A DNA stretch of 64,000 nt from a virus (IMGVR_UViG_3300027741_000024:82311-146310); one strand, 5' to 3'; counted from the stretch's first letter, positions 2,991 through 18,906 are shown. A program made the numbers and translations. Notes: generated by a model not told the origin, from the letters alone.

Positions 2991-3550
2991 GTTACGTGAA
3001 ATATTATGATAATGTTTTGCCTAAGACATTTTGTGATTCTGTTATAAAGAAGTTTGAGAATCATCCAAAACAACACAGAGAAACCTTTTTAGAAGGGCAT
3101 CGTTCATTCACCGAATTAAATTTGAATGAGAACATTGTAAGTTGGAAATCTGAAATAGACTATCTAGTAAGCACGATGCAAACCTATATGGATGTGTATA
3201 AGAAGGATGTCGGTGTTGATTTGATGGCATGGCCAGAAAACTTTGGATTTGAACAATTAAGGATGAAACGATATCTACCAAACGATCAAGATGAGTTTAA
3301 GTTTCATGTAGATGTACAAGACTATGCCTCAGCACGTAGATTTTTGGTATTTTTTTGGTATCTGAATGATGTGGAAGAAGGTGGACAGACAGCATTTCAA
3401 CTCAACAGAAATCAACCGGTTAAAGTTAAAGTACAACCTAGAACAGGTCGCTTGCTAATGTTTCCACCATTGTGGACACACCCACATGTGGCATTCAAAC
3501 CAGTAGATGTACCAAAGTATATTGTTGGTGGTTACTTACATTACGTTTAA
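2987..3550 (+). CDS. 2OG-Fe(II) oxygenase (prolyl-hydroxylase-like)
   Basis: HVD...YLNDV..GG.T.F...LLMFPPLWTHPH...KY pattern. Confidence 0.9.
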   Translation: MSYVKYYDNVLPKTFCDSVIKKFENHPKQHRETFLEGHRSFTELNLNENIVSWKSEIDYLVSTMQTYMDVYKKDVGVDLMAWPENFGFEQLRMKRYLPNDQDEFKFHVDVQDYASARRFLVFFWYLNDVEEGGQTAFQLNRNQPVKVKVQPRTGRLLMFPPLWTHPHVAFKPVDVPKYIVGGYLHYV

Positions 3551-3555
3551 AAATT

Positions 3556-4671
3556 ATGAATCTAACTAGAGATCAAGCAGTATATTGTGCTAACATCTAT
3601 TCAAAATACTTTGATAAATTTCAGAGAATTGATGATTATATTCGTGATCAAAAACTAAATTCTTTATCTGAAAGACCTCCTACTTTGTTTGGTATGGGAC
3701 CAGAAGAAGATTTATTTTCAGACTTTGATATACACCCACAAGATATGGAGTTTGAACTTGTAGAACTACCACAAAATAATTGGGACATTTATTTGAACAT
3801 GATTTCTTCACATTCAAATATGACTAGTATTCCTGGTAGATGTTTTCGTTTGGCAGTACAAGAAAAGAATACAAAGAAGTGGGTTGGTTTCATTCGTTTG
3901 GGTTCTCCTGTTATTAACATGAAACCAAGAAATGAAATGTTGGGTGGTGTATTTTCTCAAACACCCGAATCTGCAAAGTCATTTAATCACACATCGATTA
4001 TGGGTTTTGTGATTGTACCTTCACAACCCTTTGGTTTTAATTACCTTGGTGGTAAACTACTTGCTGCAATCTGTTGTTCACATTGGGTCAAAGAAAAGTT
4101 AGATGCAAAGTATGACATGAATACCTGTTTGTTTGAAACGACAAGTCTTTATGGCAGTTCAAAGTCATCATCACAATATGATGGCATGAAACCATATTTA
4201 AGATTCAAAGGTTTGACTGACAGCAATTTCTTACCAATGATGCACGGTAAACCTTATGATGATTTAAAGAACTATGTTGAGAATGCGATTGGTGAATTCG
4301 TACCTGCTGATGCATCATCACGTAAACTGAAAGTCTCAAACGCAATCATTTCAATGACTAAAGTGGCATTGAAAGGTTCACCAGAAGGTGAGAAGTTTGC
4401 ACAGACTGTGGAGAATGCCTTGTCATTGACAGAAAAGAAACGATACTATGCCTCAAATTATGGTTACAGTAACTTTACAGATGTGGTCATGGGTAAAACG
4501 GACAAATTGATTCCAGACAAGGAGAACTATGATAAGTTTCATCTGGAGACGATCATAGACTGGTGGAAGAAGAAATCAACGACCAGATATGATACACTCA
4601 AGTCTGAGAATAGGCTACGCTCCGAGATAGAAGTATGGACAGGCGAAAAAGAACTTGACATTATCAGGTAA
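3556..4671 (+). CDS. DUF4338/DruA-related protein conserved in aquatic T4-like phages
   Basis: IVPSQPFGFNYLGGKLLA and FETTSLYG motifs resemble the DruA/DUF4338 family. Confidence 0.6.
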   Translation: MNLTRDQAVYCANIYSKYFDKFQRIDDYIRDQKLNSLSERPPTLFGMGPEEDLFSDFDIHPQDMEFELVELPQNNWDIYLNMISSHSNMTSIPGRCFRLAVQEKNTKKWVGFIRLGSPVINMKPRNEMLGGVFSQTPESAKSFNHTSIMGFVIVPSQPFGFNYLGGKLLAAICCSHWVKEKLDAKYDMNTCLFETTSLYGSSKSSSQYDGMKPYLRFKGLTDSNFLPMMHGKPYDDLKNYVENAIGEFVPADASSRKLKVSNAIISMTKVALKGSPEGEKFAQTVENALSLTEKKRYYASNYGYSNFTDVVMGKTDKLIPDKENYDKFHLETIIDWWKKKSTTRYDTLKSENRLRSEIEVWTGEKELDIIR

Positions 4672-5836: not shown

Positions 5837-7066
5837 ATGAAATTCAGAGAATATTTAACCGAAGCAAAAAAAGAAGGTAAGAACGTTCACCTAGAACATC
5901 TTGAAGATAATGTATTGAACAATGGTGTGTCTGGTGCAAGAGAAGCAATCAACTTTCTGCGTTCACTTCGCAATATGTTAGCAGGTCATTCCGATGTTAA
6001 AGTAAACGTGACAACAAAATGGGATGGTGCACCTGCAATATTTTGTGGCATTAATCCAGAAAACGGTAAGTTCTTTGTTGGTACAAAATCTGTGTTCAAC
6101 AAGAATGCCAAACTAAACTATACTGACGCAGACATTGATGAGAATCATCCATCAGAAGGACTGAATGATAAACTGAAGATTGCACTTGCATACTTACCAA
6201 AGTTAGGTATCAAGGGTATTCTGCAAGGTGATATGATGTTCACCAAAGATGATTTAAAACACGAAACGATTGATGGTGAAGAGTATTTAATATTTCAACC
6301 GAATACAATTGTGTATGCAGTACCAGCAAATACTAAACTGGCTAAGATGATGCAAGCCGCACAACTTGGTGTGGTATTTCATACATCATATGTTGGTAAA
6401 AATATTGAGAACATGAAAGCATCATTCAATATCGATATTGGTCATTTACAAACAACTAAAGATGTTTGGTTCCGTGATGCATCATTCACTGACGCATCTG
6501 GTTCTGCCACATTCACAGAAAAAGAAACTGCTGACCTCACATCAATTCTTTCACAAGCAGGAAGATTGTTCACTACAATACCTGCACTCATACTTAATAA
6601 GATTGCATCATCCGAAACTTATCTGATGCAAATTAAAACGTACAACAATACCAAAGTGCGTGAGGGTCAAGAGATTCGTGATACTAGGGCACATGTAACC
6701 GGTTTGATGAAGTGGGTAGAAGATAAACTGAACAAAGAAATCTCTGCTGCAAAGAAAGCAGATACGAAAGAGAAACGCATCAAAGAGAAAACAGAAGTCA
6801 TGCGATTCTATCGTACCAATGCTGCACAACTAAAAAACATATTTGATTTGATGAATATGATCATTGAGGCAAAACTTATGATCATTCGTAAGTTGGAAAC
6901 TATTCGTTCAATCGGCACATTTGTTCGTACTGATGATGGATTCAGAATCACAGCACCAGAAGGATTTGTAGCAGTAGATAAACTAAAAGGTAATGCATTG
7001 AAATTAGTTGATCGTTTAGAGTTCAGTCATCAGAATTTTAGTGCTGCTAAAAATTGGAGTAAATGA
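5837..7066 (+). CDS. DUF6267-like protein with KxDG (ligase/nucleotidyltransferase motif I) and capsid-targeting-like N-terminus
   Basis: TTKWDGAPA, QGDMMF, PEGFV, KLVDR resemble RNA-ligase-superfamily motifs; N-terminus MKFREYLTE. Confidence 0.65.
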   Translation: MKFREYLTEAKKEGKNVHLEHLEDNVLNNGVSGAREAINFLRSLRNMLAGHSDVKVNVTTKWDGAPAIFCGINPENGKFFVGTKSVFNKNAKLNYTDADIDENHPSEGLNDKLKIALAYLPKLGIKGILQGDMMFTKDDLKHETIDGEEYLIFQPNTIVYAVPANTKLAKMMQAAQLGVVFHTSYVGKNIENMKASFNIDIGHLQTTKDVWFRDASFTDASGSATFTEKETADLTSILSQAGRLFTTIPALILNKIASSETYLMQIKTYNNTKVREGQEIRDTRAHVTGLMKWVEDKLNKEISAAKKADTKEKRIKEKTEVMRFYRTNAAQLKNIFDLMNMIIEAKLMIIRKLETIRSIGTFVRTDDGFRITAPEGFVAVDKLKGNALKLVDRLEFSHQNFSAAKNWSK

Positions 7067-7338
7067 TGGAATACGATATCAATAAGATTATGGCAGAATA
7101 TGGAGATAAAGATTTTGGTTTCTCCACAGTTGACGAAGTTGAATATGAAGCAGTTATTGCAGAAAAAAATGATACAGTCCAAGAATACAAAGATCGTTTA
7201 ACTGAAGTAGAAAAAATTATCATGCCATTTTTGACCAATTTGCTCAAGTCAAAAGATCAACCATACATTCATTGGCCTAATCGTGGTCCAATCATTGAGA
7301 AACAAATACAGAAGATATTGACGTTGACGAGGAATTAG
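7063..7338 (+). CDS. hypothetical protein
   Basis: 91 aa; DFGFS...PFLTNLLK..YIHWPNR; GGAG SD. Confidence 0.75.
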   Translation: MMEYDINKIMAEYGDKDFGFSTVDEVEYEAVIAEKNDTVQEYKDRLTEVEKIIMPFLTNLLKSKDQPYIHWPNRGPIIEKQIQKILTLTRN

Positions 7339-7496
7339 TGAAATCGTTCAAAGAATATATTAAAGATTTAAAAGGTACACAAGAGTTTGTATCTAAGGCT
7401 GGTGCTGGTGAATGGGGTAGACCAGAAACGGTACAAAAATATGTAAAAGACACACCAGGACAAACTATAGAACTATATAAGAAATACACTAATTAA
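7338..7496 (+). CDS. small protein with capsid-targeting-like N-terminus (not in ORF track)
   Basis: GTG start after GAGGA; MKSFKEYIKDLKGTQEFVSKAGAGEWGRPETVQKYVKDTPGQTIELYKKYTN. Confidence 0.65.
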   Translation: MKSFKEYIKDLKGTQEFVSKAGAGEWGRPETVQKYVKDTPGQTIELYKKYTN

Positions 7497-7515: not shown

Positions 7516-8358
7516 ATGAAAGATTTGATCATTGGCTGCGCCACGAATTATAATTGGTCCAAATTAAAGTATTGGGTCAACTCTATCAATCAATCAGGCT
7601 TTGAAGGTGATAAATGCCTGATTCTTATGAATTGTGATAAAGAAACCGTAGATAAGATTTCTGATGCGGGTTTTGCTATCATAGCATTCAATCAAGATTC
7701 AAATGGTAATCTAACATACAACTCTAACATGATGGTGCATGTTGAGAGGTTCTTCCACATCTACAATGTTCTAAAAAATAATCTATATCGATATGTAATT
7801 ACCACTGATGTTAAAGATGTGATATTTCAAAAGAACCCATCTGAATGGTTAGAAAATAATTTATCAAAAGATGAAGATTTAGTATTTTCATCTGAGAGTA
7901 TGAAATATAAAGATGAGCCGTGGGGTAATCAAAATCTTATGGAAACATTTGGATCACAAATATATGAAGAGTTTAAGAATAATACTATCTTCAATGTAGG
8001 TGTTCTTGCTGGTCGTGGTTACGCCATGAAAGATTTGATGATGAATATCTTTACATCATGCGTTGGTCGTCCAATCAAAATTTGTGATCAGTCAACATTC
8101 AATTTCTTGATTTCACAACATCCATATCTAAAAACTTCCATGTATACCAAATCAGAAGATGGTTGGGCATGTCAGTTGGGCACAACTGCCGATCCAAGTA
8201 AGATAGATGAATTCCGTCCATTCTTACTTGAACCATCACCGAAATTAGATGGTGATAAGGTTGTAACTTCAGAAGGAATAGAGTATACTATAGTACATCA
8301 ATATGATCGTGTCCCAGAGTGGAAGAAAGTAATCGAGGAGAAATATAATGGTTTATGA
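7516..8358 (+). CDS. putative GT-A-type glycosyltransferase
   Basis: TTDVKDVIFQKNP (DxxD), NVGVLAG, DQSTFN, IVHQYDR. Confidence 0.7.
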   Translation: MKDLIIGCATNYNWSKLKYWVNSINQSGFEGDKCLILMNCDKETVDKISDAGFAIIAFNQDSNGNLTYNSNMMVHVERFFHIYNVLKNNLYRYVITTDVKDVIFQKNPSEWLENNLSKDEDLVFSSESMKYKDEPWGNQNLMETFGSQIYEEFKNNTIFNVGVLAGRGYAMKDLMMNIFTSCVGRPIKICDQSTFNFLISQHPYLKTSMYTKSEDGWACQLGTTADPSKIDEFRPFLLEPSPKLDGDKVVTSEGIEYTIVHQYDRVPEWKKVIEEKYNGL

Positions 8359-9070
8359 AAAAATGTATATTAATAGTGATAATGAAACATCACCTCAATC
8401 TAATCTAAAAGAAATATTCTGGAATTTGGACAAAGGTTGTACTAAATGGTCGGGTTACTTTGATGTGTATGAGAGACATCTGAGTAAATTCGTTGGTAAA
8501 TCACCACGAATTTTGGAAATTGGTGTTCTTGGTGGTGGATCAATTGAGATGTGGTTAAAATACTTTGGTGAAGGCACAGAAGTTGTTGGTGTTGACATTA
8601 ACGAAGAATGTAAAAATTATGTGTATGATGGTAAAGTAGAAATTGTAATGGGTGATCAAGGTGATCCACAATTTTGGGATCAATACCTATCAGACAAAAA
8701 AGGATTTGATATCGTCATTGATGATGGTTCGCATGTGATGCAACATCAAATTACTACACTCAATAGTGTATTTCCACATGTAAGACCTGGTGGTGTTTAT
8801 ATTTGTGAAGATACACATACAAGTTACTGGCCACAACCATGGGGTGGTTCATTCCGTGGCGCTGGCACGTTCTTGGAACATGCCAAACGCACGACAGACA
8901 TTTTAAATCAACAACACTTTCAGGGTGAACCAATAATGCCTGAAGTTTTATCAAAATATTCAGGTCTATACTCTGTAGCATTCTATAATAGTATGGTTGT
9001 ATATGAAAGAGAATCATTAAAAACATTTGGTATTGTAGATAACAAAGCAAATGTAGGACGTGATCTATGA
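8348..9070 (+). CDS. class I SAM-dependent O-methyltransferase (sugar/natural-product type)
   Basis: ILEIGVLGGGS, GVDI, GDQ, DIVIDDGSH, PGGVYICEDTHTSYW. Confidence 0.88.
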   Translation: MVYEKMYINSDNETSPQSNLKEIFWNLDKGCTKWSGYFDVYERHLSKFVGKSPRILEIGVLGGGSIEMWLKYFGEGTEVVGVDINEECKNYVYDGKVEIVMGDQGDPQFWDQYLSDKKGFDIVIDDGSHVMQHQITTLNSVFPHVRPGGVYICEDTHTSYWPQPWGGSFRGAGTFLEHAKRTTDILNQQHFQGEPIMPEVLSKYSGLYSVAFYNSMVVYERESLKTFGIVDNKANVGRDL

Positions 9071-9783
9071 AGATAGCATTATGTTTATCTGGTCAAGCAC
9101 GAAGTGTGGAAGCAGGATATGAATTTCATAAGAAAAATATTATAGAAGGTAATGATGTAACTGTATTCTTTCACACATGGACACAAGATGATATGAGTTT
9201 CTATCGGAAGATTATAGACTTGTATAATCCTGAATTATCGGTTGCTGAAGATCCGCTTGATGAAGATTTGTCAAAATACACAAGAACTCCACCACCATCA
9301 CCAAACTGGAAAGTAAAGGATGGTAGAATGTCAACATTTGCTCAACTGTATGCTATTCAAGGTTGCAATCAGTTGAAATCTGAATATGAACTTGAAAACA
9401 ATATGACATTTGATTGGGTGATTCGGTCACGATTTGATTTTGCCATCAACGCTAAGATACCGTTTGATGAATTGGATAACAGCAAACTGTACATTCCAAA
9501 TTGCCGTATGGTACCAACCAAAGATTTTGGTAATGATCAGTTCGCATTCTCATCATCTAAGAATATGGATAACTATGCAGAATGTTATAATCATATTGAC
9601 AAATTCTATGATTCTGGTGTACAATATATGTGTGAAGATTTTATGAGTGCTAACTGGAAGAAATACGGTATGGTTGGTGAGAATCTGGTATACTGTGATG
9701 TCAACCATCCATTTCCACCAGGTGAGTATAACGGAACACCACATTCTTTAATCAGGGAAGATTTTAAAAAATGGTTAACTTAG
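9067..9783 (+). CDS. putative glycosyltransferase (KIALCLSGQxR family)
   Basis: MKIALCLSGQARS, FFHTW, FDWVIRSRFD, NDQFAF. Confidence 0.65.
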   Translation: MKIALCLSGQARSVEAGYEFHKKNIIEGNDVTVFFHTWTQDDMSFYRKIIDLYNPELSVAEDPLDEDLSKYTRTPPPSPNWKVKDGRMSTFAQLYAIQGCNQLKSEYELENNMTFDWVIRSRFDFAINAKIPFDELDNSKLYIPNCRMVPTKDFGNDQFAFSSSKNMDNYAECYNHIDKFYDSGVQYMCEDFMSANWKKYGMVGENLVYCDVNHPFPPGEYNGTPHSLIREDFKKWLT

Positions 9784-10508
9784 TTATCTGTATGGCGGGT
9801 TATAATACCCGTTTTCATGATGTTGGTTTTGATATTCCAAAGTATCTGTTGCCTTGGAATAACACAACAATCATTCACGATATCTTAAATAATTTTGGTG
9901 AAACGTACCAAACAATTCTTGTTGCAAACAAGCGTGATGTTTATTTCAAAGATCAATTACTAGAAACCATCAAACCATTTGGATTAGATGAGAAGAACAT
10001 TCTATACATTGGTGATACTAAAGGTCAAGCACATACTGCTGCCATAGGTATTGATCAACTGTATGATGACAACATACCAACATTCATTCATAATGCAGAT
10101 ACAATTGTTACAGGTCGATCTTTAAATCTGATTGCTGATTCGATGAATAATCTGTATGATGCTTATATTGATGTGTTTGTTGGCAACTCACCAAAGTATT
10201 CATATGTTCGGGCATTTGAAGAAACTGTACTGGAAATTGTAGAGAAGAAACAAATCTCACCATATGCTTCATCAGGACTATATGGATTTTTGACGGGTAA
10301 TATGTACATGAGTTTTTTTAATTCACTTTGGGCGAAACAATATGAAGAAAAGAGTGAACTGTATGTAGCAGATGTGATTCAAAGTATGATTGCTGGAGGT
10401 AAACAAGTATTCATGAATGGTCTTGGAAATAACCAAGAAACGATTGTACTTGGCAGTCCACAAGAATATGGTATTGAGATAGCAAGACAAACATTAGGTG
10501 CAAGATGA
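9771..10508 (+). CDS. sugar-phosphate nucleotidyltransferase (NTP transferase family)
   Basis: MAGYNTRF...PKYLL, TKGQAHTA, HNADT, ELYVADV, LGSPQEY. Confidence 0.85.
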   Translation: MVNLVICMAGYNTRFHDVGFDIPKYLLPWNNTTIIHDILNNFGETYQTILVANKRDVYFKDQLLETIKPFGLDEKNILYIGDTKGQAHTAAIGIDQLYDDNIPTFIHNADTIVTGRSLNLIADSMNNLYDAYIDVFVGNSPKYSYVRAFEETVLEIVEKKQISPYASSGLYGFLTGNMYMSFFNSLWAKQYEEKSELYVADVIQSMIAGGKQVFMNGLGNNQETIVLGSPQEYGIEIARQTLGAR

Positions 10509-11473
10509 TATCCGCAGTAAAGAAACTTAAAGGTGGTTCCCTTAGTTCCACATACTATATTAAATCTTGTGAACAAGAATGTATCAGTAAAGAAATTGTT
10601 CGTGATCAAAATCGTGAATATGGTTTCGTTCGTTGGTATTCACAACTAAAGAAATTGCAACGATATAATACATTGTATCCTAATCTATTTCCACAAGTTA
10701 TTAATGTTGGTGTTGATCACAATAAAGCATTCTTCAAAATAGAATATATGAAAGGTTTTCGTGACATTAAAAATATTCTGACTAACGACACTCTGACTGA
10801 TGAACAAATCTTTCGTATGAGTCAAGCGGTGTGGAAAGGTCTGAATCAACTTCATTCAGTCACACATGATCCAATACCGGGAGCAGGTAATTTATATTTT
10901 GAAGAAGAAGTACAACAAAAGATAACCGATGCACTTGTTGTGCCAGAGTTTGCTGAGTTTTATTCTTATGGAACATATGAGTATCATGATACAATTGTTC
11001 AAGGTATAGGTGCTTCAATAAACGACTTAGAAAATTTCTTTTCCGAGTTAAAGTTGGTACAAGAGGAAAACATTCATGGTAATCCTACACTAGAAAACAT
11101 TTTATATTCATTTGAGGAAGATCGTGTGGTATTTATTGATGTATATGAAGAAAGTATGATTGATACTAGGTTTTTGGACTATGCACAAGTTTTACAATGC
11201 TCACGCAGTAATTATGGTTACATAAATGATAATCAGGTAGATATAGATGGTGTTTCTGTAACTCATAGGTTGCAGATACCAAAGAATTTTGAAACCTTTA
11301 ACTATCATTTTGAGTCAGGAATTACCGAAAAAAGAACTAAAGAGATTGTGAACATTTTTGAGGCAACTCAGTTCATTCGTATGCTTCCATTCAAAGTTCT
11401 GGCAGGTGATATAGATAAAGCAAAGTTCTTTTATATTCAGGCGTGTTATTTGTTAAGTAAGGTATTTAAATGA
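10505..11473 (+). CDS. APH/choline-kinase-fold phosphotransferase
   Basis: LKGGSLS, IEYM, IHGNPTLENILY...VFID. Confidence 0.7.
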   Translation: MISAVKKLKGGSLSSTYYIKSCEQECISKEIVRDQNREYGFVRWYSQLKKLQRYNTLYPNLFPQVINVGVDHNKAFFKIEYMKGFRDIKNILTNDTLTDEQIFRMSQAVWKGLNQLHSVTHDPIPGAGNLYFEEEVQQKITDALVVPEFAEFYSYGTYEYHDTIVQGIGASINDLENFFSELKLVQEENIHGNPTLENILYSFEEDRVVFIDVYEESMIDTRFLDYAQVLQCSRSNYGYINDNQVDIDGVSVTHRLQIPKNFETFNYHFESGITEKRTKEIVNIFEATQFIRMLPFKVLAGDIDKAKFFYIQACYLLSKVFK

Positions 11474-12609
11474 ATGATTTTATGATGGATTACGACAAGT
11501 TCAAACGGACTTGGACAGTCAAAACAGAATTACCAGTAGAGTTCAAACTAACATACTCTGCTGATATTTTCAATCCTTTGAACCATGACTTGGTATCGTA
11601 TAAGACTAACGATAGAGTGATGATTGTTATTGATCAGAATGTTCATAAGTTTTACACTGTAGAATTAATGAACTATTTCAATTCCCATAATGTTAAATAT
11701 TCTATGTTGGTTATTGATACTGACGAAGAAAGCAAGACATGGGAAGATGCAGACTATATTTTACAATTTTTTGAAGATGAAGGAGTGTTACGCCGTGAAC
11801 CGATTATCGCCATTGGTGGTGGTGTCTTGCTTGACATTGTTGGGTTTGCTTGCAGCATATATCGCCGTGGAATCCCTTACATCAAAGTCCCAACTACTTT
11901 ACTGGCCATTGTTGATGCTTCCGTAGGGTCGAAGGTAGCAGTTAATCATTTTGAAAGACGCAATCGTCTTGGTGCATACTATCCACCAATTGCCACATTG
12001 ATCGACAAGAAGTTCATTAAGACACAAAGTGAACGTGAAATCGTTAATGGTATTGCTGAGATATTCAAGTTAGCAGTTATCAAATCACCAGAACTATTCA
12101 CACTACTTGAAGAGAATGCTGAACTGTTGATTGAAGAGAAGTTTCAGCACGGCGCAGTACCAGTTCGTGTCATCAATCTTGCTATCACAGATATGATTGC
12201 TGAACTTGGTCCTAATCTATGGGAAAGAAAACTAGATCGATGTGTAGACTTTGGTCACACATTCAGTCCTGTGATTGAGATGACAAATATACCAGAATTA
12301 TTGCATGGGGAAGCAGTAGCACTTGATTGCTTGTATAGTTCATGTATTGCTTGTCTGCGTGGTTACATAGGTCAGAGTGTTCTCAACAGAATATTCAATC
12401 TAGCAAAACGATTAAAACTAAAAACATTTCATGAAGGTTTCACAAACATGGAATTACTTCAGAAAAGTTTATCGGACGCAACTAAACATCGTAATGGTAA
12501 TCAGTATGCACCGTTGCCAATATATGTGGGTAATTATAAAATTGTGAATGATATTACAAAATCGGAAATGGAATACGCTATCGCACTTTTTAGGACTTAT
12601 CATGATTAA
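11470..12609 (+). CDS. sedoheptulose 7-phosphate cyclase, 2-epi-5-epi-valiolone synthase (EEVS)-like
   Basis: GGGVLLD, PTTLLAIVDASVGSK, NRLGAY, ELGPNLWERKLDRCVDFGHTFSP, LLHGEAVA. The NLWE...VDFGH segment is EEVS-type, not DHQS (LNxGH) or DDGS (NLHE..IAYGH). Confidence 0.85.
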   Translation: MNDFMMDYDKFKRTWTVKTELPVEFKLTYSADIFNPLNHDLVSYKTNDRVMIVIDQNVHKFYTVELMNYFNSHNVKYSMLVIDTDEESKTWEDADYILQFFEDEGVLRREPIIAIGGGVLLDIVGFACSIYRRGIPYIKVPTTLLAIVDASVGSKVAVNHFERRNRLGAYYPPIATLIDKKFIKTQSEREIVNGIAEIFKLAVIKSPELFTLLEENAELLIEEKFQHGAVPVRVINLAITDMIAELGPNLWERKLDRCVDFGHTFSPVIEMTNIPELLHGEAVALDCLYSSCIACLRGYIGQSVLNRIFNLAKRLKLKTFHEGFTNMELLQKSLSDATKHRNGNQYAPLPIYVGNYKIVNDITKSEMEYAIALFRTYHD

Positions 12610-13279
12610 GAAAAATGCTGTGGTGACAGGTTGCAGTTATGGTTTGGGTGCAGAGATTTGTCGTAAATTAATTGACGATGGTTATCATGTCTATGGTCTA
12701 TCACGCAGTAAACCACCAGAAAGTTTCTTGAAATTTCCAGAAGATTTTACATGGGTTGAATGTGATATTTCAAGTTACGATGACGTTAGATTGGCATTCA
12801 AATATATGAACCAATATACCGATATCCTAGTCAATAATGCTGGTGTATTTACTGGTGGAAAGTTTGCAGCACAAAATCATGAAGCAATTGATAAAGTTAT
12901 TGATGTTAATGTCAAAGGTGCGATGTATGTTACCAACGAAGCATTGAAGTGGATGCCATCAGGATCACGCATATTCTTTATTAATTCAGTTTCTGGTTTG
13001 TATGAGATAGAGTATGAAGCAATCTATGGTGCATCTAAACATGCACTCACTGCATTTGCGGGTGTGTTAGGTAAAGAATTGCAAAGTCGTGGCATCTATG
13101 TAACTAGTATTCATCCTGGCAGTATTGAGACTCCGATGCAACGAAATAATCCGAACAATGCACCAGATAAGTTTTTGAAACCAGAAGAGATTGCTAATCT
13201 GATTTCATTTATTTGTAAGACCGAAAATGTAGAATATAAAACAATCAAACTATTTCCAAGGACAGAATGGCACCAATGA
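12602..13279 (+). CDS. short-chain dehydrogenase/reductase (SDR)
   Basis: TGCSYGLG, NNAG, NSVSG, YGASK, HPG. Confidence 0.92.
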   Translation: MIKKNAVVTGCSYGLGAEICRKLIDDGYHVYGLSRSKPPESFLKFPEDFTWVECDISSYDDVRLAFKYMNQYTDILVNNAGVFTGGKFAAQNHEAIDKVIDVNVKGAMYVTNEALKWMPSGSRIFFINSVSGLYEIEYEAIYGASKHALTAFAGVLGKELQSRGIYVTSIHPGSIETPMQRNNPNNAPDKFLKPEEIANLISFICKTENVEYKTIKLFPRTEWHQ

Positions 13280-13974
13280 AAGATAAAACATTATTCATCG
13301 TAACATCAGCTTTGAATGCTGATATGGGTGTGGTTAGTCGCACCGACAGGTTTGATCAGACTATGAAAGGTCTGATATCAATTCGTAAGTATGTACCTGA
13401 TGCCATTATTCTTTTAACAGATGGATCGCCTCATGAAATTGAAAAAGCAAAATTAAAAGCAATTTCACACTTTGCTAATTTTGCTGCCGATTTTTCTGGC
13501 GATGAACAAATAACTGAGTTGGCTATTAATCATCGTAAAAGTGAAGCAGAAAATCTTTTGATGTTGAAAACTTTAATGCTTTTACAACAAGATGAGGATA
13601 TGAAAGAAGTTATGAATAATGTTGAACGTATATTCAAGTTATCAGCACGAACTGATCTGACTGATGAATTTAACGTTGAAGAACATATGCATCAGGGTAA
13701 GTACGTATTTAAGAAAAGGATGCCAACTTGGTTGGAAGATTCTCGTAATGAGTTTGCTACAGACCTACTGATTACACGTATGTTTTCGTTCTGTCCAACA
13801 CTGATGAACGATTACATGAAAATGTGTGAAAATAATATTTCACTGATTCTTCAGACTAGAATTGATACGGAACACGCACATTTTGTCAATATTAACAAAG
13901 ATTTATTAGTAGAATTAGATGAAATTCACTGTACAGGCATCATGGCTGGCACTGGTGCAGTTGAAAATTACTAA
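13267..13974 (+). CDS. hypothetical protein, glycosyltransferase-like
   Basis: FIVTSAL...RFDQT..LISIRKYVPDAIILLTDGS, FKLSAR; coupled to the cluster. Confidence 0.55.
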   Translation: MAPMKDKTLFIVTSALNADMGVVSRTDRFDQTMKGLISIRKYVPDAIILLTDGSPHEIEKAKLKAISHFANFAADFSGDEQITELAINHRKSEAENLLMLKTLMLLQQDEDMKEVMNNVERIFKLSARTDLTDEFNVEEHMHQGKYVFKKRMPTWLEDSRNEFATDLLITRMFSFCPTLMNDYMKMCENNISLILQTRIDTEHAHFVNINKDLLVELDEIHCTGIMAGTGAVENY

Positions 13975-13977
13975 ATA
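13970..13977 (+). promoter_or_regulatory. late-promoter-like ACTAAATA
   Basis: TAAATA core about 35 nt upstream of ORF 14012. Confidence 0.45.
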
Positions 13978-14011
13978 GAAGAAAACGTAACCCTGCTGTA
14001 GAGGCGGATAA

Positions 14012-16126
14012 ATGAAATTTAGCGATTTTCTGCGTGAGCAGAAAGAAAAACATGCTGTACTGGCATTCGGGCGTATGAACCCGATAACTTCTGGTCACGA
14101 AAAATTAGTCAACAAAGTCAAAGATATTGCCGATAAAGTCGGTGGTTCTCATCACATCGTTCTGTCACATTCACAAGACTCTAAAAAGAATCCTCTTACA
14201 GCAGCACAAAAAGTCAAGCATGCCAAACGTGCATTTCCCAATACTAATTTTACTGCCGCAAATAAAGATGCACCAACATTCTTTCATCACGCAGAGAAAC
14301 TTCATAAACAAGGTGTAACTCACCTTCATATGGTAGGTGGTTCTGATCGTACAGACGAGTACCATAAACTCTTACACAAGTATAATGGTACACATGAAGG
14401 TGCTCGGTTTAACTTCAAATCAATCAAAGTCCATTCTGCTGGTGAACGTGATCCTGATGCTGAAGGCACAACTGGTATTTCCGCAAGTAAGATGCGTGAA
14501 CATGCCACTAAAGGCAACTTCAAAGAATTCAAAAAAGGTGTACCATCTTCAATGTCTCATGAACATGCTAAACACATGTACAATGATGTTCGTAAAGGCA
14601 TGAATCTGCATGAGTCTATTCTAGCAGAAGGTGTACACGATAAAGCAATATTCAAAGCCGTATTTTTAGCAGGTGGTCCAGGTTCTGGTAAAGATTATGT
14701 TCTGTCAAATACACTTGACGGACACGGCATGATTGAAATCAATTCAGATAAAGCATTAGAGTATCTGATGGATAAAGAAAATCTGGATAAGACTATGCCA
14801 GATAACGAAGCAGGACAACGTAATGCAGTTCGCAAAAAGGCTAAAGATATTACAGAAATTCGTAATCGTCTAGCACTTCATGGTCGTAATGGCTTAATCA
14901 TTAATGGCACTGGTGCTGATCCAAAAGAATATGAAGAAATCAAAAAGAAACTAGAGAAGTTAGGTTACGATACTTCAATGATCATGGTTAATACCGATGA
15001 TGAAGTATCAAAAGCCAGAAATGTAGAACGTGGTCAACGTGGTGGTCGTACAGTGCCAGAAGAGATTCGTAAGAAAAAATGGGAAGAAGTACAGGCAGCA
15101 CGTGCTCAGTTTTCTAAAATATTTCGCAACAACTATATTGAATTTGATAACTCTGAAGATTTACGTAATGCATCACCAGATGTTGTCAAAGCAAAAAAAG
15201 AAGAGATGCAACAAATTTTCAAACAGATTCAAAAGTTTGTTGATACGCCTCCAAAAAGTGAACAATCAAAACATTGGATAGCATCAGAGTTAGGTCAAAA
15301 AGACACAGCACCAATTAGCAAAACCGCACAACCTAATACAAATGCAAAAACAAACGATGAGATGAATGCGATGGGTCTTGAGTATTATGGATTCGGTCGT
15401 TACGGTAAAAATGGTAAAGTTACTCATCGTTCAGTGCATGATCATTTAGTGCCAGTTGAGAAAATTGCTAAAAAAGTCAACGAAGCATTTGAAGATTTGT
15501 TTGAAGAAGAAGAAAAAAAGAAAAAACAAAAACTTATGTCGGATACAAATGGAAAACCAAAAGTGTTTCATTTTCGTATGTCTGCTGCAAAGGAAGCACA
15601 TCGTAACAATGGTATAGTTCACAAAGTTGGAAAAACGTATGTTGTTAAAATCAGAGAGGACTTAAATGAAATATCTTCACCAGATAATAATGCTATTGAA
15701 GCAATTTATGGACAAAATATCTCCACCCCCAGTGCAAAACAACTTGGCAAAGTTGGAACCAACTTTAGACCAAAAGGAAAACCTGCCCTTGACAAACCAG
15801 TCAGTGAGTCGGACAACGGAAGCGGAAGTGAAACCCGCCCGAAAATCACCCTCAACAAAATCAAAGAAAACTGGAACAAGAAAACCCAAGAGTCCATCGA
15901 CAAAGGGATAGAACCAGGTCTTTCAATGGCAAGTTCAGGTGAATCACCTGCACGTGATACTGGTGAGAAGTTAAGTAAGAGAGGTAAAGCAACACAAGTT
16001 ATACCATCATCAATCACTGAGTTGACTGGTGATGAAACAACTGCATCTATTGGTGATCAAAAAGAAGATGAGTTGAAGAAAAAAGGTATCTCACTTACAA
16101 CATTTAAAAAGAGAAACTTTGTATGA
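14012..16126 (+). CDS. cytidylyltransferase-like (HxGH) domain fused to a P-loop kinase (zeta/AAA_33-like) domain
   Basis: FGRMNPITSGHEKL...VGGSDR...ISASKMR; second domain AVFLAGGPGSGKD...IINGTG...RNVER; N-terminus MKFSDFLRE. Confidence 0.8.
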   Translation: MKFSDFLREQKEKHAVLAFGRMNPITSGHEKLVNKVKDIADKVGGSHHIVLSHSQDSKKNPLTAAQKVKHAKRAFPNTNFTAANKDAPTFFHHAEKLHKQGVTHLHMVGGSDRTDEYHKLLHKYNGTHEGARFNFKSIKVHSAGERDPDAEGTTGISASKMREHATKGNFKEFKKGVPSSMSHEHAKHMYNDVRKGMNLHESILAEGVHDKAIFKAVFLAGGPGSGKDYVLSNTLDGHGMIEINSDKALEYLMDKENLDKTMPDNEAGQRNAVRKKAKDITEIRNRLALHGRNGLIINGTGADPKEYEEIKKKLEKLGYDTSMIMVNTDDEVSKARNVERGQRGGRTVPEEIRKKKWEEVQAARAQFSKIFRNNYIEFDNSEDLRNASPDVVKAKKEEMQQIFKQIQKFVDTPPKSEQSKHWIASELGQKDTAPISKTAQPNTNAKTNDEMNAMGLEYYGFGRYGKNGKVTHRSVHDHLVPVEKIAKKVNEAFEDLFEEEEKKKKQKLMSDTNGKPKVFHFRMSAAKEAHRNNGIVHKVGKTYVVKIREDLNEISSPDNNAIEAIYGQNISTPSAKQLGKVGTNFRPKGKPALDKPVSESDNGSGSETRPKITLNKIKENWNKKTQESIDKGIEPGLSMASSGESPARDTGEKLSKRGKATQVIPSSITELTGDETTASIGDQKEDELKKKGISLTTFKKRNFV
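15666..15911 (+). CDS. probable overprinted small basic protein in the +1 frame of ORF 14012
   Basis: GAGGA SD 5 nt before ATG; 81 aa with Lys/Pro/Ser/Thr-rich tail; local C-rich compositional shift. Confidence 0.45.
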   Translation: MKYLHQIIMLLKQFMDKISPPPVQNNLAKLEPTLDQKENLPLTNQSVSRTTEAEVKPARKSPSTKSKKTGTRKPKSPSTKG

Positions 16127-17304
16127 AAAAGTTTGAACAATTCGTAAAAGAAGAAAATAAATCTGGAGATTCTTCTTTGCATGATTGGTTTACTAAAAGT
16201 AAATCATCAGATGGTAAACCAGGATGGGTTCAGTTGGGTGGGCGATATGCAGGAAAATCGTGTGCCAAACAGCCAGGTCAAACTACTAAACCGAAATGCG
16301 GTAGTTCAAAGATGGCAGCATCAATGTCAGACAAAGAAGAGGATGCAGCCGCAAAAAGAAAAAGAGCACAGGATCCCAATCCAAATAGAAGTGGCGCACC
16401 AATAAATGTTCCAACAGAAGGAAAACGAAAGATGAAAGAAGAGTGGAGTCAAAAATATAAAAATTCAATTAACTGTTCACATCCTAAAGGATTCAGTCAA
16501 AAGGCACATTGCGCTGGCAAGAAAAAACAGAATGAATCTACTGATATGGAAATGGTATGCGAAGATTGCGGTATGTGCCAGACACATGGTAATCATTCAC
16601 ATGATACTTTAGGTGAAGCATGTTGGACAGGATATGAAAAAAAAGGAATGAAAACAATGTTTGGTAAGAAGTATCCTAACTGCGTTAAAAAAGAAAGTAT
16701 TGAAGAATATATAGCTAAGAGTGAATGTCCAGAATGTGGTGGACATATGGTTTCAGAAGATGAGTTGACAGAAGAAAAAGATGCCTGTTACCATAAAGTA
16801 AAATCACGATACTCAGTATTTCCAAGTGCATATGCATCGGGTGCATTGGTCAAGTGCCGTAAAGTGGGTGCTGCCAATTGGGGAAATAAAACAAAACAAG
16901 AAGCAACTCAATTAATACCGTTCAAGGCATTTATTAACGAAGCCGCCAATGCTGCACAACAGGCAGCGATTGCAATCAATATGAAAAAGAAAGGCATCAA
17001 GCCTAAGAATGAAGAAGTTGAATTGGATGAGACTGAAGCATGGACACGCAAAGAAGGACAGAATTCAGAAGGTGGTTTAAATCATAAAGGTATTGAATCA
17101 TATCGTGCTGCACATCCTGGCTCACACTTATCTATGGCTGTAACAACAAAGCCAAGTAAATTGAAAGCAGGTTCTAAGGCAGCAAACAGAAGAAAATCAT
17201 TTTGTGCTAGAATGGGTGGCATGAAGAAAAGATTAACATCAGCAAAGACCGCACGTGATCCAGATTCACGTATCAATAAGGCTTTGCGTAAATGGAATTG
17301 CTAA
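16123..17304 (+). CDS. modular basic/Cys-rich virion (internal head) protein candidate
   Basis: Concatenated short modules (CAKQPGQTTKPKC; INCSHPKGFSQKAHC; ACWTGY..PNCV; DACYHKVK..KCR; RRKSFCARM..RKWNC) separated by acidic xxE linkers. Confidence 0.7.
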   Translation: MKKFEQFVKEENKSGDSSLHDWFTKSKSSDGKPGWVQLGGRYAGKSCAKQPGQTTKPKCGSSKMAASMSDKEEDAAAKRKRAQDPNPNRSGAPINVPTEGKRKMKEEWSQKYKNSINCSHPKGFSQKAHCAGKKKQNESTDMEMVCEDCGMCQTHGNHSHDTLGEACWTGYEKKGMKTMFGKKYPNCVKKESIEEYIAKSECPECGGHMVSEDELTEEKDACYHKVKSRYSVFPSAYASGALVKCRKVGAANWGNKTKQEATQLIPFKAFINEAANAAQQAAIAINMKKKGIKPKNEEVELDETEAWTRKEGQNSEGGLNHKGIESYRAAHPGSHLSMAVTTKPSKLKAGSKAANRRKSFCARMGGMKKRLTSAKTARDPDSRINKALRKWNC

Positions 17305-17333
17305 AAAAATTAAAAATAAAATAGGAGACTTAG

Positions 17334-18905
17334 ATGTCAATTTTCAACGATAAAGCACTGAAAGGTGTAGCAGCAGCAGTATCAAAGATTATGGATGAAG
17401 AACTAAAAGGTAATCAAACTAAAATTGATGCCAATCATAATGGTAAAATTGATGCACAAGATTTTAAACTACTTCGTGCCAAAAAAACTATCAAAGAAGA
17501 TGATGTTGGTTATCAGCATCGCTATTCTGTTAAGAATGGTAAAGCAACTGTACACAATCCCGCAAAAGGTGAAAAGGATGAACCTCATCACGTTTATGCT
17601 GATAGTGAAGAACATGCGGTTCGTAAACATGCTGCCCAAAATAAACCAACAGTAAAAGAAGAAGTCAAAAAGAATGAATATCACATTGCAGGAAAACATA
17701 AATTTCCTACAAAAGATGAACATGCGGTAACAGTGAAGCACACCGAAAGTGGTCGTGAACATGTTCATAGTGGTAAAGGAAAGTATCTGTCAAAATTAAT
17801 TAAGTCGAGATATGACATCAATCATCATTTTGAAAGTGTTGAACTTGATGAGGCATTTCCAACTGTGGCTGATGCTAAAAAACGCATGGCTGCTGGTAAA
17901 ACTGCCACTGGTACAGTAACAAAAACAAAAACAGGTTTAGTTCATAATCGTGATTACAAAGACGATGATAATGATGCAGAAGATATGCAAAAGAAATCAA
18001 AAGGTTATGGTGCTCGTCAAAATTTCAAGCGTTCAACCCGTGTCAATGAACAGAAACTTTCTTTTACAGAAATGCTTGAATTGTACAATGAGGCAGGTGT
18101 AGAAGTTATTGCTAAGATTGCTCCACAAACAGTCAAGTTCGGTGACACTGAAGTTGAAGTATTTGATGCTGATAAAATCAACGGCGCTATTGAAACTACC
18201 GTTGTTGAAGAAGTAGATAACGAAACATTTACCAAAGAAGTTGAAGCACAGAAAGCAAAGAATGCTGGCGGTGGTAAGAAAGCAGATGTTGCTAAAGCAT
18301 CCGTACAAGCAGTGAAGCAAGAGGAAGTTGAACAGATTGATGAACTAAAGAAATCGACTGTATCCTCTTACATTCAGAAGAAATTTGGTAAGATGAGTGA
18401 TGAACCTGTTTCAAAAAATCAATATGGATATGCCAAAAAAGATGCAAAAGGTATTCAACGTGCTGGTTTGCGTATGAGTGGTATTAAAGCAACTCAAAAA
18501 GAAGAAGTAGAACACTTGGATGAATTGTCGAAGAACACTCTTGGTTCATACATCAAATCAGCATCACACGATGTTGCTGCTAAAGGTGCATTCACACGCC
18601 ATTTTGCTGATAAATCACGTGCTGAAACTGCGGAACAAAAACATGACTTAGCACGTAAAAGCATGAAACAAGCAGATAAAGTTCAAGATGCTGGCATGAA
18701 ACGCCGTGCGAATATGGCAAAAGCAGTTGATCGTTTGACCAAAGAAGAAACACAATTAGACGAAAAACTGCCAGCAAGTGCATCCGCTGGTGATTACATT
18801 CATGACTTTGTTCACTCTGACAATCCAAAGTTTGACGGTAAATCAACTAAAGAACGTCAAAAGATGGCATTAGGTGCATTCTACGCTAAGAACAAAGGTA
18901 AGTAA
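17334..18905 (+). CDS. modular internal-head-like protein with EF-hand-like loop
   Basis: DANHNGKIDAQDF; repeated EEVEQIDEL/EEVEHLDEL modules; AGGAG SD. Confidence 0.7.
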   Translation: MSIFNDKALKGVAAAVSKIMDEELKGNQTKIDANHNGKIDAQDFKLLRAKKTIKEDDVGYQHRYSVKNGKATVHNPAKGEKDEPHHVYADSEEHAVRKHAAQNKPTVKEEVKKNEYHIAGKHKFPTKDEHAVTVKHTESGREHVHSGKGKYLSKLIKSRYDINHHFESVELDEAFPTVADAKKRMAAGKTATGTVTKTKTGLVHNRDYKDDDNDAEDMQKKSKGYGARQNFKRSTRVNEQKLSFTEMLELYNEAGVEVIAKIAPQTVKFGDTEVEVFDADKINGAIETTVVEEVDNETFTKEVEAQKAKNAGGGKKADVAKASVQAVKQEEVEQIDELKKSTVSSYIQKKFGKMSDEPVSKNQYGYAKKDAKGIQRAGLRMSGIKATQKEEVEHLDELSKNTLGSYIKSASHDVAAKGAFTRHFADKSRAETAEQKHDLARKSMKQADKVQDAGMKRRANMAKAVDRLTKEETQLDEKLPASASAGDYIHDFVHSDNPKFDGKSTKERQKMALGAFYAKNKGK

Positions 18906-18906
18906 T

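Follow-up and report, generated by a model that had tools for sequence, protein, structure and literature searches.

Four adjacent genes of an uncultured T4-like phage form a modular donor-supply core within an island of eight genes, and we think it probable that they make an activated C7 cyclitol from sedoheptulose 7-phosphate (S7P), which is used by the GT-A-like transferases of the same glycan island. The island was found in a window of 64,000 nucleotides (IMGVR_UViG_3300027741_000024:82311-146310), the whole stretch of DNA that was analysed. The eight genes, named here G1 to G8, had been described in a sequence-only reading of this window as joined by overlapping stop/start junctions. All eight were found at the same coordinates, on the + strand from 7516 to 13974, and neighbouring reading frames overlap by 4-13 nt, given a start of the SDR gene G7 at ATG 12602. 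The listed reading frame of G7 starts at 12548; however, ATG 12602, which gives an overlap of 8 nt with the end of the cyclase gene, is its likely start. These short overlaps suggest translational coupling.

Synteny holds among phages: the gene order is kept in 37 phage loci covering the slot, and dN/dS of the island genes is 0.05-0.17, which corresponds to purifying selection; the arrangement is therefore not due to chance. The island is inserted in the region of replication and nucleotide metabolism located between uvsX/gp41 helicase and primase/thyX/nrdAB, where a DUF6267 gene adjoins it on one side and a cytidylyltransferase-like gene on the other. The sequence-only reading had placed it among late virion genes, which is not the case, and virion decoration thus cannot be argued from its position.

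The core gene G6 (11470-12609) encodes a predicted EEVS-type S7P cyclase, and its sequence points away from a 3-dehydroquinate synthase (DHQS) or a DDGS. G6 shows the two-domain architecture of the DHQS superfamily, with DHQ_synthase (PF01761, E 1.5e-35) and DHQS_C (PF24621, E 1.8e-19) domains. According to the PDB ranking, its closest relative of solved structure is ValA (4p53, 291.9 bits, E 4.5e-86), followed by DDGS (5tpr, 223.9 bits, E 2e-65), the best DHQS (145.8 bits, E 1e-41) and DOIS (85 bits, E 3.5e-23). The signature PNLWE...RCVDFGHTFSP, previously read as EEVS-type, is present with both its PNLWE and VDFGH parts. NLWE and VDFGH are identical in ValA in the alignment, whereas DDGS shows PNLHE and IAYGH at these two compared sites, and they are the majority signature among 184 EEVS-clade sequences. 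The same site reads NLGH in Salmonella AroB and AYGH in one DDGS-like sequence. Furthermore, residues R133, K155, N165, E197, R257, H263 and H279 of G6 are invariant in 20 members of the clade. Kean et al. reportedly defined, in 2014, a 14-residue fingerprint for EEVS.

In a tree rooted on AroB, the phage cyclases form one clade (support 0.945) deep within the EEVS clade. It is nested in a 34-leaf clade (support 0.983) that takes in 15 of the 16 bacterial cyclases found in a comparable cassette, and actinomycete natural-product EEVS without the cassette fall outside of it. Among the sequences of the tree, this cassette clade has no characterised member; it stands apart from every characterised EEVS, and the stereochemistry of the G6 product is therefore not secured. 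The alternative that G6 is an ordinary DHQS or a DDGS, whose neighbours handle ordinary sugars only, is scarcely credible. It is true that aroB is the best NCBIfam model for G6 and that JGI labels most G6 homologs as 3-dehydroquinate synthase; however, the aroB score of 214 bits is far under the model cut-off of 305 bits, the score with ValA doubles that of the best DHQS (292 and 146 bits), the G6 fingerprint is D-F-G-H instead of N-x-G-H (DHQS) or A-Y-G-H (DDGS), and the position of the phage clade in the AroB-rooted tree also stands against it. No EEVS-type cyclase was found in 50,697 phage records searched, where the matches were aroB at 26-33% identity, mostly in bacterial-looking records.

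The core gene G7 (12602-13279) encodes a classical SDR (adh_short, E 2.6e-40), whose translation contains the TGxxxGxG, NNAG and YxxxK motifs and which is presumed to be the cyclitol ketoreductase. In two bacterial loci, L047 and L061, an aldo/keto reductase takes the place of the SDR, a non-orthologous displacement which argues that the reduction step is required. G4 (9771-10508), also a core gene, encodes a short nucleotidyltransferase of 245 aa of the NDP-sugar pyrophosphorylase type, with matches to PDB 4evw (E 2.8e-18), TIGR01208 rmlA_long (E 3.4e-10) and Arch_glmU (E 5e-10).

The remaining core gene, G5 (10505-11473), encodes a kinase-like protein of the APH/choline-kinase fold. Its AlphaFold model (pLDDT 90.3) matched APH(2''), MTR kinase (MtnK), NahK, LicA and fructosamine-3-kinase in a Foldseek search against PDB, with probability 1.0, E of about 1e-7 and TM of 0.45-0.59. 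The ATP/Mg residues are invariant in 19 homologs: the KGGSL loop, K29, E38, N198 and D212, assigned by motif position to the Gly-rich loop, beta3 Lys, alphaC Glu, Brenner-motif Asn and Mg-binding Asp, respectively. The APH-fold kinase previously proposed is thus borne out in its fold and ATP/Mg motifs, but not in the canonical catalytic Asp. At the catalytic-base position of HxDxxxxN, G5 has N193, all 19 homologs show HGNxTLEN, and BLASTP pairs HGNPTLEN of G5 with HGDLTLEN of a sister-phage kinase. Because Asn replaces the catalytic Asp in every one of these homologs, G5 may transfer phosphate in an unusual way or may catalyse another reaction. In the Atlas, the structural neighbours of G5 (TM 0.84) are naturally fused to NTP_transferase domains, which would count in favour of kinase-to-nucleotidyltransferase coupling.

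The order of G4 to G7 is identical in every phage locus with enough flank. Outside phages, 16 bacterial loci representing at least eight phyla or classes combine a G5-like gene, an EEVS gene, a reductase gene and a nucleotidyltransferase gene, and G4 is found with G5 and G6 in 14. The co-conservation of reductase, kinase-like protein and nucleotidyltransferase with the cyclase, in phages and in these 16 loci, agrees with what had been foreseen and is compatible with an NDP-activated C7 cyclitol. The bacterial cassette, found in Polynucleobacter sp. 80A-SIGWE and in MAGs of Myxococcales, Fibrobacteria, Balneolaceae and Desulfobulbaceae, is of the same true family as the phage core: it comprises the same four gene families, shares the HGNxTLEN motif and has its cyclases in one clade with those of the phages. 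The two differ in gene order, which is kinase-cyclase-reductase-nucleotidyltransferase in most bacteria, whereas in the phages and in loci L045-L048 and L061 the nucleotidyltransferase is first. They also differ in their partners: GT2, GT9, GT47, GT61 and sulfotransferases in bacteria, and G1, G3 and G8 in the phage. In the isolate Polynucleobacter sp. 80A-SIGWE the cassette lies in an O-antigen-like locus, together with ManC, GT2, Wzz, an ABC-like gene, GT9, GMD and DegT. No published function for the bacterial four-gene cassette was found in the literature.

Sister phages, whose DUF6267 protein is 92-94% identical, keep G1, G2, G3 and G8 and fill the slot of G4 to G7 with an APH kinase (HGD) and an NTase-HAD, in some cases together with an NDP-sugar epimerase; in more distant phages the island is wholly absent. 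The glycosyltransferase-like genes and the methyltransferase, which had been read as part of the cyclitol system, therefore persist where the cyclase core is missing, and constitute a general glycan scaffold that is not cyclitol-specific. Label changes on the trees number 4-6 for the glycosyltransferase-like genes and 3-5 for flanking genes, and because of this similarity G1, G3 and G8 are not tied to the cyclase core.

The scaffold gene G1 (7516-8358) encodes a soluble glycosyltransferase-like protein of 280 aa. It is kept in sister phages without EEVS and its D98 and D101 are conserved without exception in 12 homologs; however, the glycosyltransferase evidence is weak (phrog_1579, E 8e-6), no match was found by sequence in PDB, and PF03407 Nucleotid_trans, present in 10% of the members of its language-model neighbour cluster (Atlas), is a lead only. 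G2 (8348-9070) encodes a SAM-dependent methyltransferase (Methyltransf_24, E 2.7e-7; phrog_21658, E 6e-24; and a weak CmcI/rhamnosyl O-MT match, E 9e-4). This optional decoration gene is dispensable: it is missing in loci L002, L003, L021 and L028-L037, and has moved to a position after G8 in L025-L027. The scaffold gene adjoining the donor-supply slot, G3 (9067-9783), encodes a DUF7796 protein (PF25072, E 6.8e-9; phrog_13607, E 9e-26) which is probably a GT-A-like transferase; distant homologs are found in cyanophage glycan islands, such as the S-SM2 "capsular polysaccharide biosynthesis protein". The last scaffold gene, G8 (13267-13974), encodes a glycosyltransferase-like protein predicted to adopt a GT-A fold. 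Its model (pLDDT 93.3) matched alpha-1,3-galactosyltransferase (GT6), glycogenin (GT8) and Kre2 (GT15) in PDB by Foldseek, with probability 1.0, E 2e-7 and TM of about 0.5. The model also matches a Sylvanvirus DUF7796 protein, of the family of G3, and its BFVD matches include cyanophage and giant-virus glycosyltransferases; the Atlas gives WavE at 0.91 as a lead. Across the G8 sequences D200, E202 and H203 never vary and D52 hardly does, and no canonical DxD could be placed from sequence conservation. One "Stealth protein" is among the weaker viral matches of G8.

We infer the chemical steps of the following route, as well as their order, the nucleotide, the transfer reaction, the product and its acceptor, for which virion, DNA and host surface had been suggested. 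G6 would cyclise host S7P into a C7 keto-cyclitol, most likely 2-epi-5-epi-valiolone, whose ketone would be reduced by G7 to give a saturated cyclitol; G5 would phosphorylate the cyclitol with ATP, and G4 would convert the cyclitol phosphate into NDP-cyclitol. The soluble GT-A-like G1, G3 and G8, together with the optional G2, would form the glycan-building scaffold that takes NDP-cyclitol as donor, probably in addition to host NDP-sugars. Since no dehydratase or epimerase is found among the eight proteins, the product would be saturated. To our knowledge, there is no precedent for a GT-A enzyme that transfers a saturated carbasugar directly, and a paper on a viral pathway of this kind was not found in the literature, as the sequence-only reading had supposed. 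More tentatively, C7 carbasugars could be genuine glycoconjugate building blocks, which GT-A-type enzymes put from NDP-cyclitol into bacterial surface polysaccharides and, in phages, onto the virion or the surface of the infected cell, with a donor cassette that includes a new protein-kinase-like family with Asn for the catalytic Asp. If so, the cyclitol linkage would withstand glycosidases, phage depolymerases included, and the cassette would be a donor module that phages exchange as a unit within the glycan island.

The activated cyclitol might instead be used in the manner of a CDP-alcohol (CDP-glycerol, CDP-ribitol or CDP-6-glucitol), the cyclitol phosphate being transferred to leave a phosphodiester link on the glycan and no pseudo-glycosidic bond. 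This is chemically attractive: a saturated carbasugar cannot pass through an oxocarbenium-like transition state, known pseudoglycosyltransferases require allylic GDP-valienol and amine acceptors, with C-N links in all natural pseudo-oligosaccharides described so far (PMC9200736), Pfam and NCBIfam show neither a dehydratase nor an epimerase in the cluster, and capsules are known to be built from CDP-alditol donors. We regard it as unlikely, however, as G4 resembles sugar-1-phosphate nucleotidyltransferases (4evw, RmlA/GlmU models) and matches, in Pfam and NCBIfam, neither the IspD/TarI nor the TagD families, which make CDP-alditols, and the predicted GT-A fold of G8 is closest to retaining glycosyltransferases.

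Two further explanations dispense with transfer of the cyclitol. That the product is a free small molecule, for example a compound like gadusol that acts as UV screen or antioxidant, or a cyclitol that inhibits glycosidases, seems quite improbable: the methyltransferase is missing or displaced in many loci, while the kinase-like protein and the nucleotidyltransferase are always linked to the cyclase, and gadusol requires neither phosphorylation nor nucleotidylation. The O-antigen-like locus of the bacterial counterpart, and the ordinary sugar kinase and nucleotidyltransferase put by sister phages into the slot of the core, also speak against it, even though vertebrates make gadusol with an EEVS and a methyltransferase-oxidoreductase (PMC4426668), G2 and G7 belong to these two classes of activity, surface-water-type metagenomes are the source of the phage, which is related to cyanomyoviruses, and some relatives (L035, for example) also carry a 4,6-dehydratase and a DegT aminotransferase, which recalls acarviosine logic. 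We give still less credence to NDP-cyclitol as the end product itself, a carbocyclic mimic of NDP-heptose or another NDP-sugar that blocks host LPS-core or surface-glycan transferases, for instance in receptor change or superinfection exclusion. S7P is also the substrate of GmhA for NDP-heptose, whose established route has a parallel kinase-plus-nucleotidyltransferase logic, and a carbasugar nucleotide would resist glycosyltransferase turnover; but the same core is found within bacterial surface-glycan loci, where self-poisoning is unlikely, and in phages it is always flanked by transferase-like genes.

The route preferred here, from S7P to an NDP-cyclitol used by GT-A-like transferases, resembles the GDP-valienol branch of acarbose and validamycin biosynthesis (AcbC/ValA, AcbM/ValC, AcbO, AcbL, AcbN, AcbU, AcbJ, AcbR/ValB and AcbS/VldE) in its S7P start and EEVS-type cyclase, as well as in its logic, by which a cyclitol is reduced, phosphorylated, joined to a nucleotide and passed on to a transferase (PMC9200736). 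The parallel drawn by the sequence-only reading stands in this logic and fails in the individual enzymes. Pfam and NCBIfam scans of the eight proteins found no AcbM/ValC-type cyclitol 7-kinase, AcbO epimerase or AcbL/AcbN dehydratase/reductase, and no GT-B family match. The phage thus has no counterpart of the epimerase, dehydratase, second kinase and phosphatase of that pathway; its kinase-like protein has Asn in the catalytic position of an APH fold instead of being of the AcbM/ValC type, and its nucleotidyltransferase is short. The one transferase folded, G8, is modelled as GT-A, with GT-A-type leads only for G1 and G3, while known pseudoglycosyltransferases of the AcbS/VldE type are GT-B. 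The expected phage product is saturated and not allylic, the genes lie in a phage or in a surface-glycan locus instead of an actinomycete antibiotic cluster, and the cyclases fall in separate clades.

The vertebrate gadusol pathway likewise shows an EEVS-type cyclase near a SAM methyltransferase and a NAD(P) oxidoreductase (PMC4426668); however, MT-Ox is one fused protein that is always linked to EEVS, whereas the phage has two separate genes, G2 and G7, from other families, and G2 is missing from many loci. Furthermore, the gadusol pathway has no kinase or nucleotidyltransferase, in contrast to the phage core. The "LPS/capsule-like" islands of T4-like cyanophages (for example Synechococcus phages B23, S-SM2 and S-SRM01) are hyperplastic regions of related phages in which G3, G4 and G8 have distant homologs in the company of glycosyltransferases, but without an EEVS-type cyclase in the phage records searched. 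Finally, the salvage modules of an anomeric sugar kinase and a pyrophosphorylase (NahK/MtnK-fold kinase and sugar-1-P nucleotidyltransferase) share with the phage core the fold of G5 and its pairing with a nucleotidyltransferase, and such a module occupies the same slot in the sister phages. Their kinases keep the catalytic Asp (HGD) where G5 has HGN, and their substrate is salvaged, whereas that of the phage core would be made de novo by the cyclase.

Positions 7516-13974 contain eight ORFs, all on the + strand, which confirms the eight-gene cluster noticed in the sequence-only reading. They encode a glycosyltransferase (GT)-like protein (G1, 7516-8358), a SAM methyltransferase (G2, 8348-9070), a DUF7796 protein (G3, 9067-9783), a nucleotidyltransferase (NTase; G4, 9771-10508), an APH-fold kinase-like protein (G5, 10505-11473), an EEVS-type cyclase (G6, 11470-12609), an SDR (G7, 12602-13279) and a GT-A-like protein (G8, 13267-13974). 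The start of G7 was reset to the ATG at 12602, and each junction of the cluster thus shows an overlap of 4-13 nt. No hydrophobic segments typical of a membrane span were found in any of the eight proteins, and dN/dS of the cluster, in comparison with two relatives, ranges between 0.05 and 0.17. The IMG/VR phage record is 146 kb long, with an estimated completeness of 85%, and the window is its final 64 kb; the cluster had no megablast match among 50,697 phage records. A scan for promoters and terminators gave no useful signal, with 29 sites where 40 were expected and three terminators where four were expected; the T4 late motif TATAAATA has two copies in the window, none of them ahead of the cluster. 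A putative 52-codon frame with a GTG start (7338-7496, +), below the threshold of the ORF list, is located between a 91-aa ORF (7063-7338) and G1 and resembles coding sequence (…AGAGEWGRPETVQKYVKDTPGQ…).

At the Pfam level, G2 was assigned to the SAM methyltransferases, G3 to DUF7796, G6 to the DHQS-superfamily cyclases and G7 to the classical SDRs, and no family was found for G1, G5 and G8. G4 falls among the short NDP-sugar pyrophosphorylases (PDB 4evw, E 2.8e-18; RmlA and GlmU models, about 1e-10), and G1 shows weak glycosyltransferase leads. The structural model of G5 (pLDDT 90) matches APH(2''), 5-methylthioribose kinase, N-acetylhexosamine 1-kinase, LicA and fructosamine-3-kinase with a Foldseek probability of 1.0, and the model of G8 (pLDDT 93) matches the retaining GT-A transferases alpha-1,3-GalT, glycogenin and Kre2, as well as viral glycosyltransferases, one of them a DUF7796 protein. 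Profiles of G1, G3, G5 and G8 gave nothing significant against PDB sequences, the best for G5 being protein-kinase matches with E about 0.1, and no relationship among G1, G3 and G8 was detected by hhalign.

The closest solved relative of G6 is ValA, the EEVS of the validamycin pathway (291.9 bits), followed by DDGS (223.9), the best DHQS (145.8) and DOIS (85). G6 shows PNLWE and VDFGH, the same as ValA, the DDGS counterparts being PNLHE and IAYGH, and its score with the NCBIfam aroB model (214 bits) is far under the cut-off of 305. On this ranking, fingerprint and sub-cut-off score, the assignment of G6 as an EEVS-type cyclase is sound at the sequence level. Cyclases were aligned using the best 150 library representatives, the phage and bacterial loci and Salmonella AroB as outgroup (n=184); nearly all of them have Asp at the fingerprint site, AroB showing NLGH and one DDGS-like sequence AYGH. 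In the resulting tree, phage cyclases are monophyletic (support 0.945), with the enzyme of a low-GC gammaproteobacterial MAG as sister, and they nest inside a clade (support 0.983) that contains 15 of the 16 cyclases from bacterial loci with a G5-like gene beside the cyclase. Actinomycete EEVS without this cassette fall outside the clade; the actinomycete group was named by organism and cassette absence, and no sequence in the tree had the short ValA motif. The simplest reading is that the phages would have taken the cassette from bacteria. We infer the exact product of G6, since none of the enzymes in its clade has been characterized. A tblastn search with G6 against the 50,697 phage records found only aroB-like matches, with 26-33% identity.

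Of the 82 EEVS-like loci in the bacterial survey, two came from metagenome contigs and the other 80 from species-representative genomes. The 16 loci with a G5-like gene beside the cyclase also have a G4-like NTase in 14 cases, and an SDR in most. Carriers include Myxococcales, Fibrobacteria, Balneolaceae, Desulfobulbaceae, Holophagaceae, Saccharibacteria, Magnetovibrionaceae, the low-GC gammaproteobacterial MAG, a Prochlorococcus single-cell assembly and the isolate Polynucleobacter sp. 80A-SIGWE, which is the sole cultured carrier found in the survey and would serve as a practical system for chemical work. At two loci an aldo/keto reductase follows the cyclase in place of the SDR: in the Magnetovibrionaceae MAG (L047:9212-10264), where a GT61 and an inositol-monophosphatase-family gene are close by, and in the Prochlorococcus assembly (L061:5496-6575), which has a sulfotransferase and TPR proteins. 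The low-GC Polynucleobacter locus (L076:3493-17131) contains ManC, GT2, Wzz-like, ABC-like, GT9, GDP-mannose dehydratase (GMD) and DegT genes as neighbors of the cassette, and by gene content appears to be a typical O-antigen-type locus. In the gammaproteobacterial MAG (L045) the cassette lies on the chromosome, close to the genes for citrate synthase and a permease, and local GC at the cassette is 30-38%, near that of the phage. This MAG carries the closest bacterial cassette and offers a lead as host candidate. The closest cultured relatives of the phage are T4-like cyanophages (cyanomyoviruses; gp41 with 62-66% identity). Neither psbA nor transaldolase was found in the 85%-complete record, which therefore shows neither the cyanophage hallmark nor a phage-encoded supply of sedoheptulose 7-phosphate (S7P).

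Related phages are represented by more than 120 metagenome clusters (90% identity level; 83-100% identical to the query, contigs up to 188 kb) and by 41 IMG/VR loci with 65-96% identity. At every phage locus with enough flank, G1, G3, G4, G5, G6, G7 and G8 are found in unchanged order, in an island bounded by the gp41 helicase and DUF6267 genes and by a cytidylyltransferase-like gene; G2 is missing or moved elsewhere at many loci. The flanking DUF6267 protein was used as query to survey this slot, which gave 69 loci. Sister phages, whose DUF6267 protein is 92-94% identical, keep G1, G2, G3 and G8 and lack G4-G7. Between G3 and G8 they show a canonical HGD APH-type kinase and an NTase-HAD fusion, sometimes with an NDP-sugar epimerase/dehydratase (replacements at L127:9515-11271, L131:14135-16901 and L160:12216-16692, the content of L160 differing in a GT4 and a HAD-NTase fusion). 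In more distant phages, the DUF6267 gene adjoins the cytidylyltransferase-like gene directly and there is no island. The island thus comprises a scaffold of transferases around a donor-supply slot of exchangeable content, and G4-G7 is one of the modules that fit this slot. Changes of the module-type label on gene trees (four for G3, six each for G1 and G8, five for the DUF6267 gene and three for the gene at 14012) are not decisive on co-evolution of the glycosyltransferases with the cyclase core, and tie none of them to the cyclase. In divergent EEVS-bearing relatives (L035:6495-7622 and 12482-16226; L025:12466-13278), additional genes encode an NDP-sugar 4,6-dehydratase, a DegT/EryC1 aminotransferase and 2OG-Fe(II) oxygenases, and there is a second epimerase-like gene; their cyclitol core and added genes recall the two halves of acarviosine.

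Upstream of the island are genes for UvsX, gp41 helicase, a 2OG oxygenase, a DruA-like protein and the DUF6267 protein. The first genes downstream encode a cytidylyltransferase/P-loop kinase fusion and three mosaic proteins; next come those for a protein whose C-terminus is virion-structural-like and for an endolysin, followed by primase, thymidylate synthase and ribonucleotide reductase. The island thus sits in a replication and nucleotide-metabolism region, from UvsX/gp41 to primase/ribonucleotide reductase, and not among late virion genes as the sequence-only reading had placed it; its proposal of a cyclitol system is partly supported, in that the EEVS-type cyclase stands and this setting does not. 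The DruA-like protein (3472-4671, +; 399 aa; Pfam Druantia protein DruA, E 9e-9; phrog_19197) is found only in some relatives. The 704-aa fusion (14012-16126, +) contains cytidylyltransferase-like and Zeta-toxin/AAA_33 P-loop kinase domains and about 340 further, unassigned residues, and could act on nucleotides or nucleotide-sugars. Its gene occurs in phages with and without the island and adjoins the DUF6267 gene in distant relatives; phrog_455 spans parts of both proteins. In the three large proteins at 16123-20562 (+), one of which ends in a DUF6321 domain, relatives conserve only short stretches (10-50% coverage at 45-88% identity). Such mosaic conservation is typical of fiber or receptor-binding proteins, which makes the three possible candidate glycan acceptors. 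On the hmC/hmU route to DNA glycosylation, no ThyA or dCMP-hydroxymethylase family match was found in the 146-kb record; even so, DNA may be the acceptor. No PF00303 (ThyA-type) match was obtained for the thymidylate synthase at 26579, which is thus presumably ThyX-type.

We infer all of the pathway chemistry, in which G6 would cyclize S7P, G7 would reduce the ketone, G5 would phosphorylate the cyclitol, G4 would nucleotidylate the phosphorylated cyclitol and the scaffold transferases would use the activated product. Phosphorylation by G5 is a working assumption and the weakest enzymatic link. The glycine-rich loop KGGSL, Lys29, Glu38, Asn198 and Asp212 are invariant in G5, and all 19 homologs, from phages and bacteria alike and with identities as low as 30%, read HGNxTLEN, with Asn where the HxDxxxxN motif has its catalytic base; the replacement kinase of sister phages shows HGDLTLEN, which BLASTP pairs directly with the motif of G5. 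Judged from these homologs, the Asn is characteristic of the family and goes with the cyclase; it may mean another way of activating the cyclitol hydroxyl, or another reaction. ESM Atlas structural neighbors of G5 (TM 0.84) are fused to NTP_transferase domains, which supports a predicted hand-over from kinase to NTase.

A gadusol-type product or an inhibitor is less likely as outcome, because the kinase-like protein and the NTase are always there and the methyltransferase is not. Transfer of a cyclitol-phosphate, in the manner of CDP-alditols, is improbable but carries real weight: the phage cluster has no dehydratase and the donor would therefore be saturated, whereas known pseudoglycosyltransferases use an allylic donor, those of acarbose and validamycin require an amine acceptor (PMC9200736), and every natural pseudo-oligosaccharide known so far is C-N linked (PMC9200736). 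Against it, G4 belongs to the sugar-1-phosphate NTase type.

If activation of a cyclitol by G4-G7 is true, a hydrolysis-resistant pseudo-sugar joins the microbial and viral glycan repertoire, a widespread uncharacterized bacterial cassette with a testable product is defined, and a kinase-like family with an altered catalytic center is indicated. Furthermore, T4-like phages exchange entire donor-supply modules within a fixed transferase scaffold, a point of relevance to phage-host recognition and to the reprogramming of metabolism through a diverted pentose-phosphate intermediate. No paper tying EEVS or C7 cyclitols to phages, auxiliary metabolic genes, O-antigens or capsules came up in full-text searches, and viruses are absent from a 2026 review of cyclitols.

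C7 cyclitols are the cores of antibiotics (validamycin, acarbose), plant-symbiont toxins and sunscreens; to our knowledge, they are not known as nucleotide-activated units from surface-glycan loci or viruses. The phage cassette resembles the acarbose and validamycin pathways in logic only, as these reach allylic valienol by way of an epimerase, a dehydratase and kinases of other families. The cluster would instead represent a form of EEVS-based cyclitol activation that relies on different enzyme families, is located in a modular phage glycan island and is common to bacterial surface-glycan loci.
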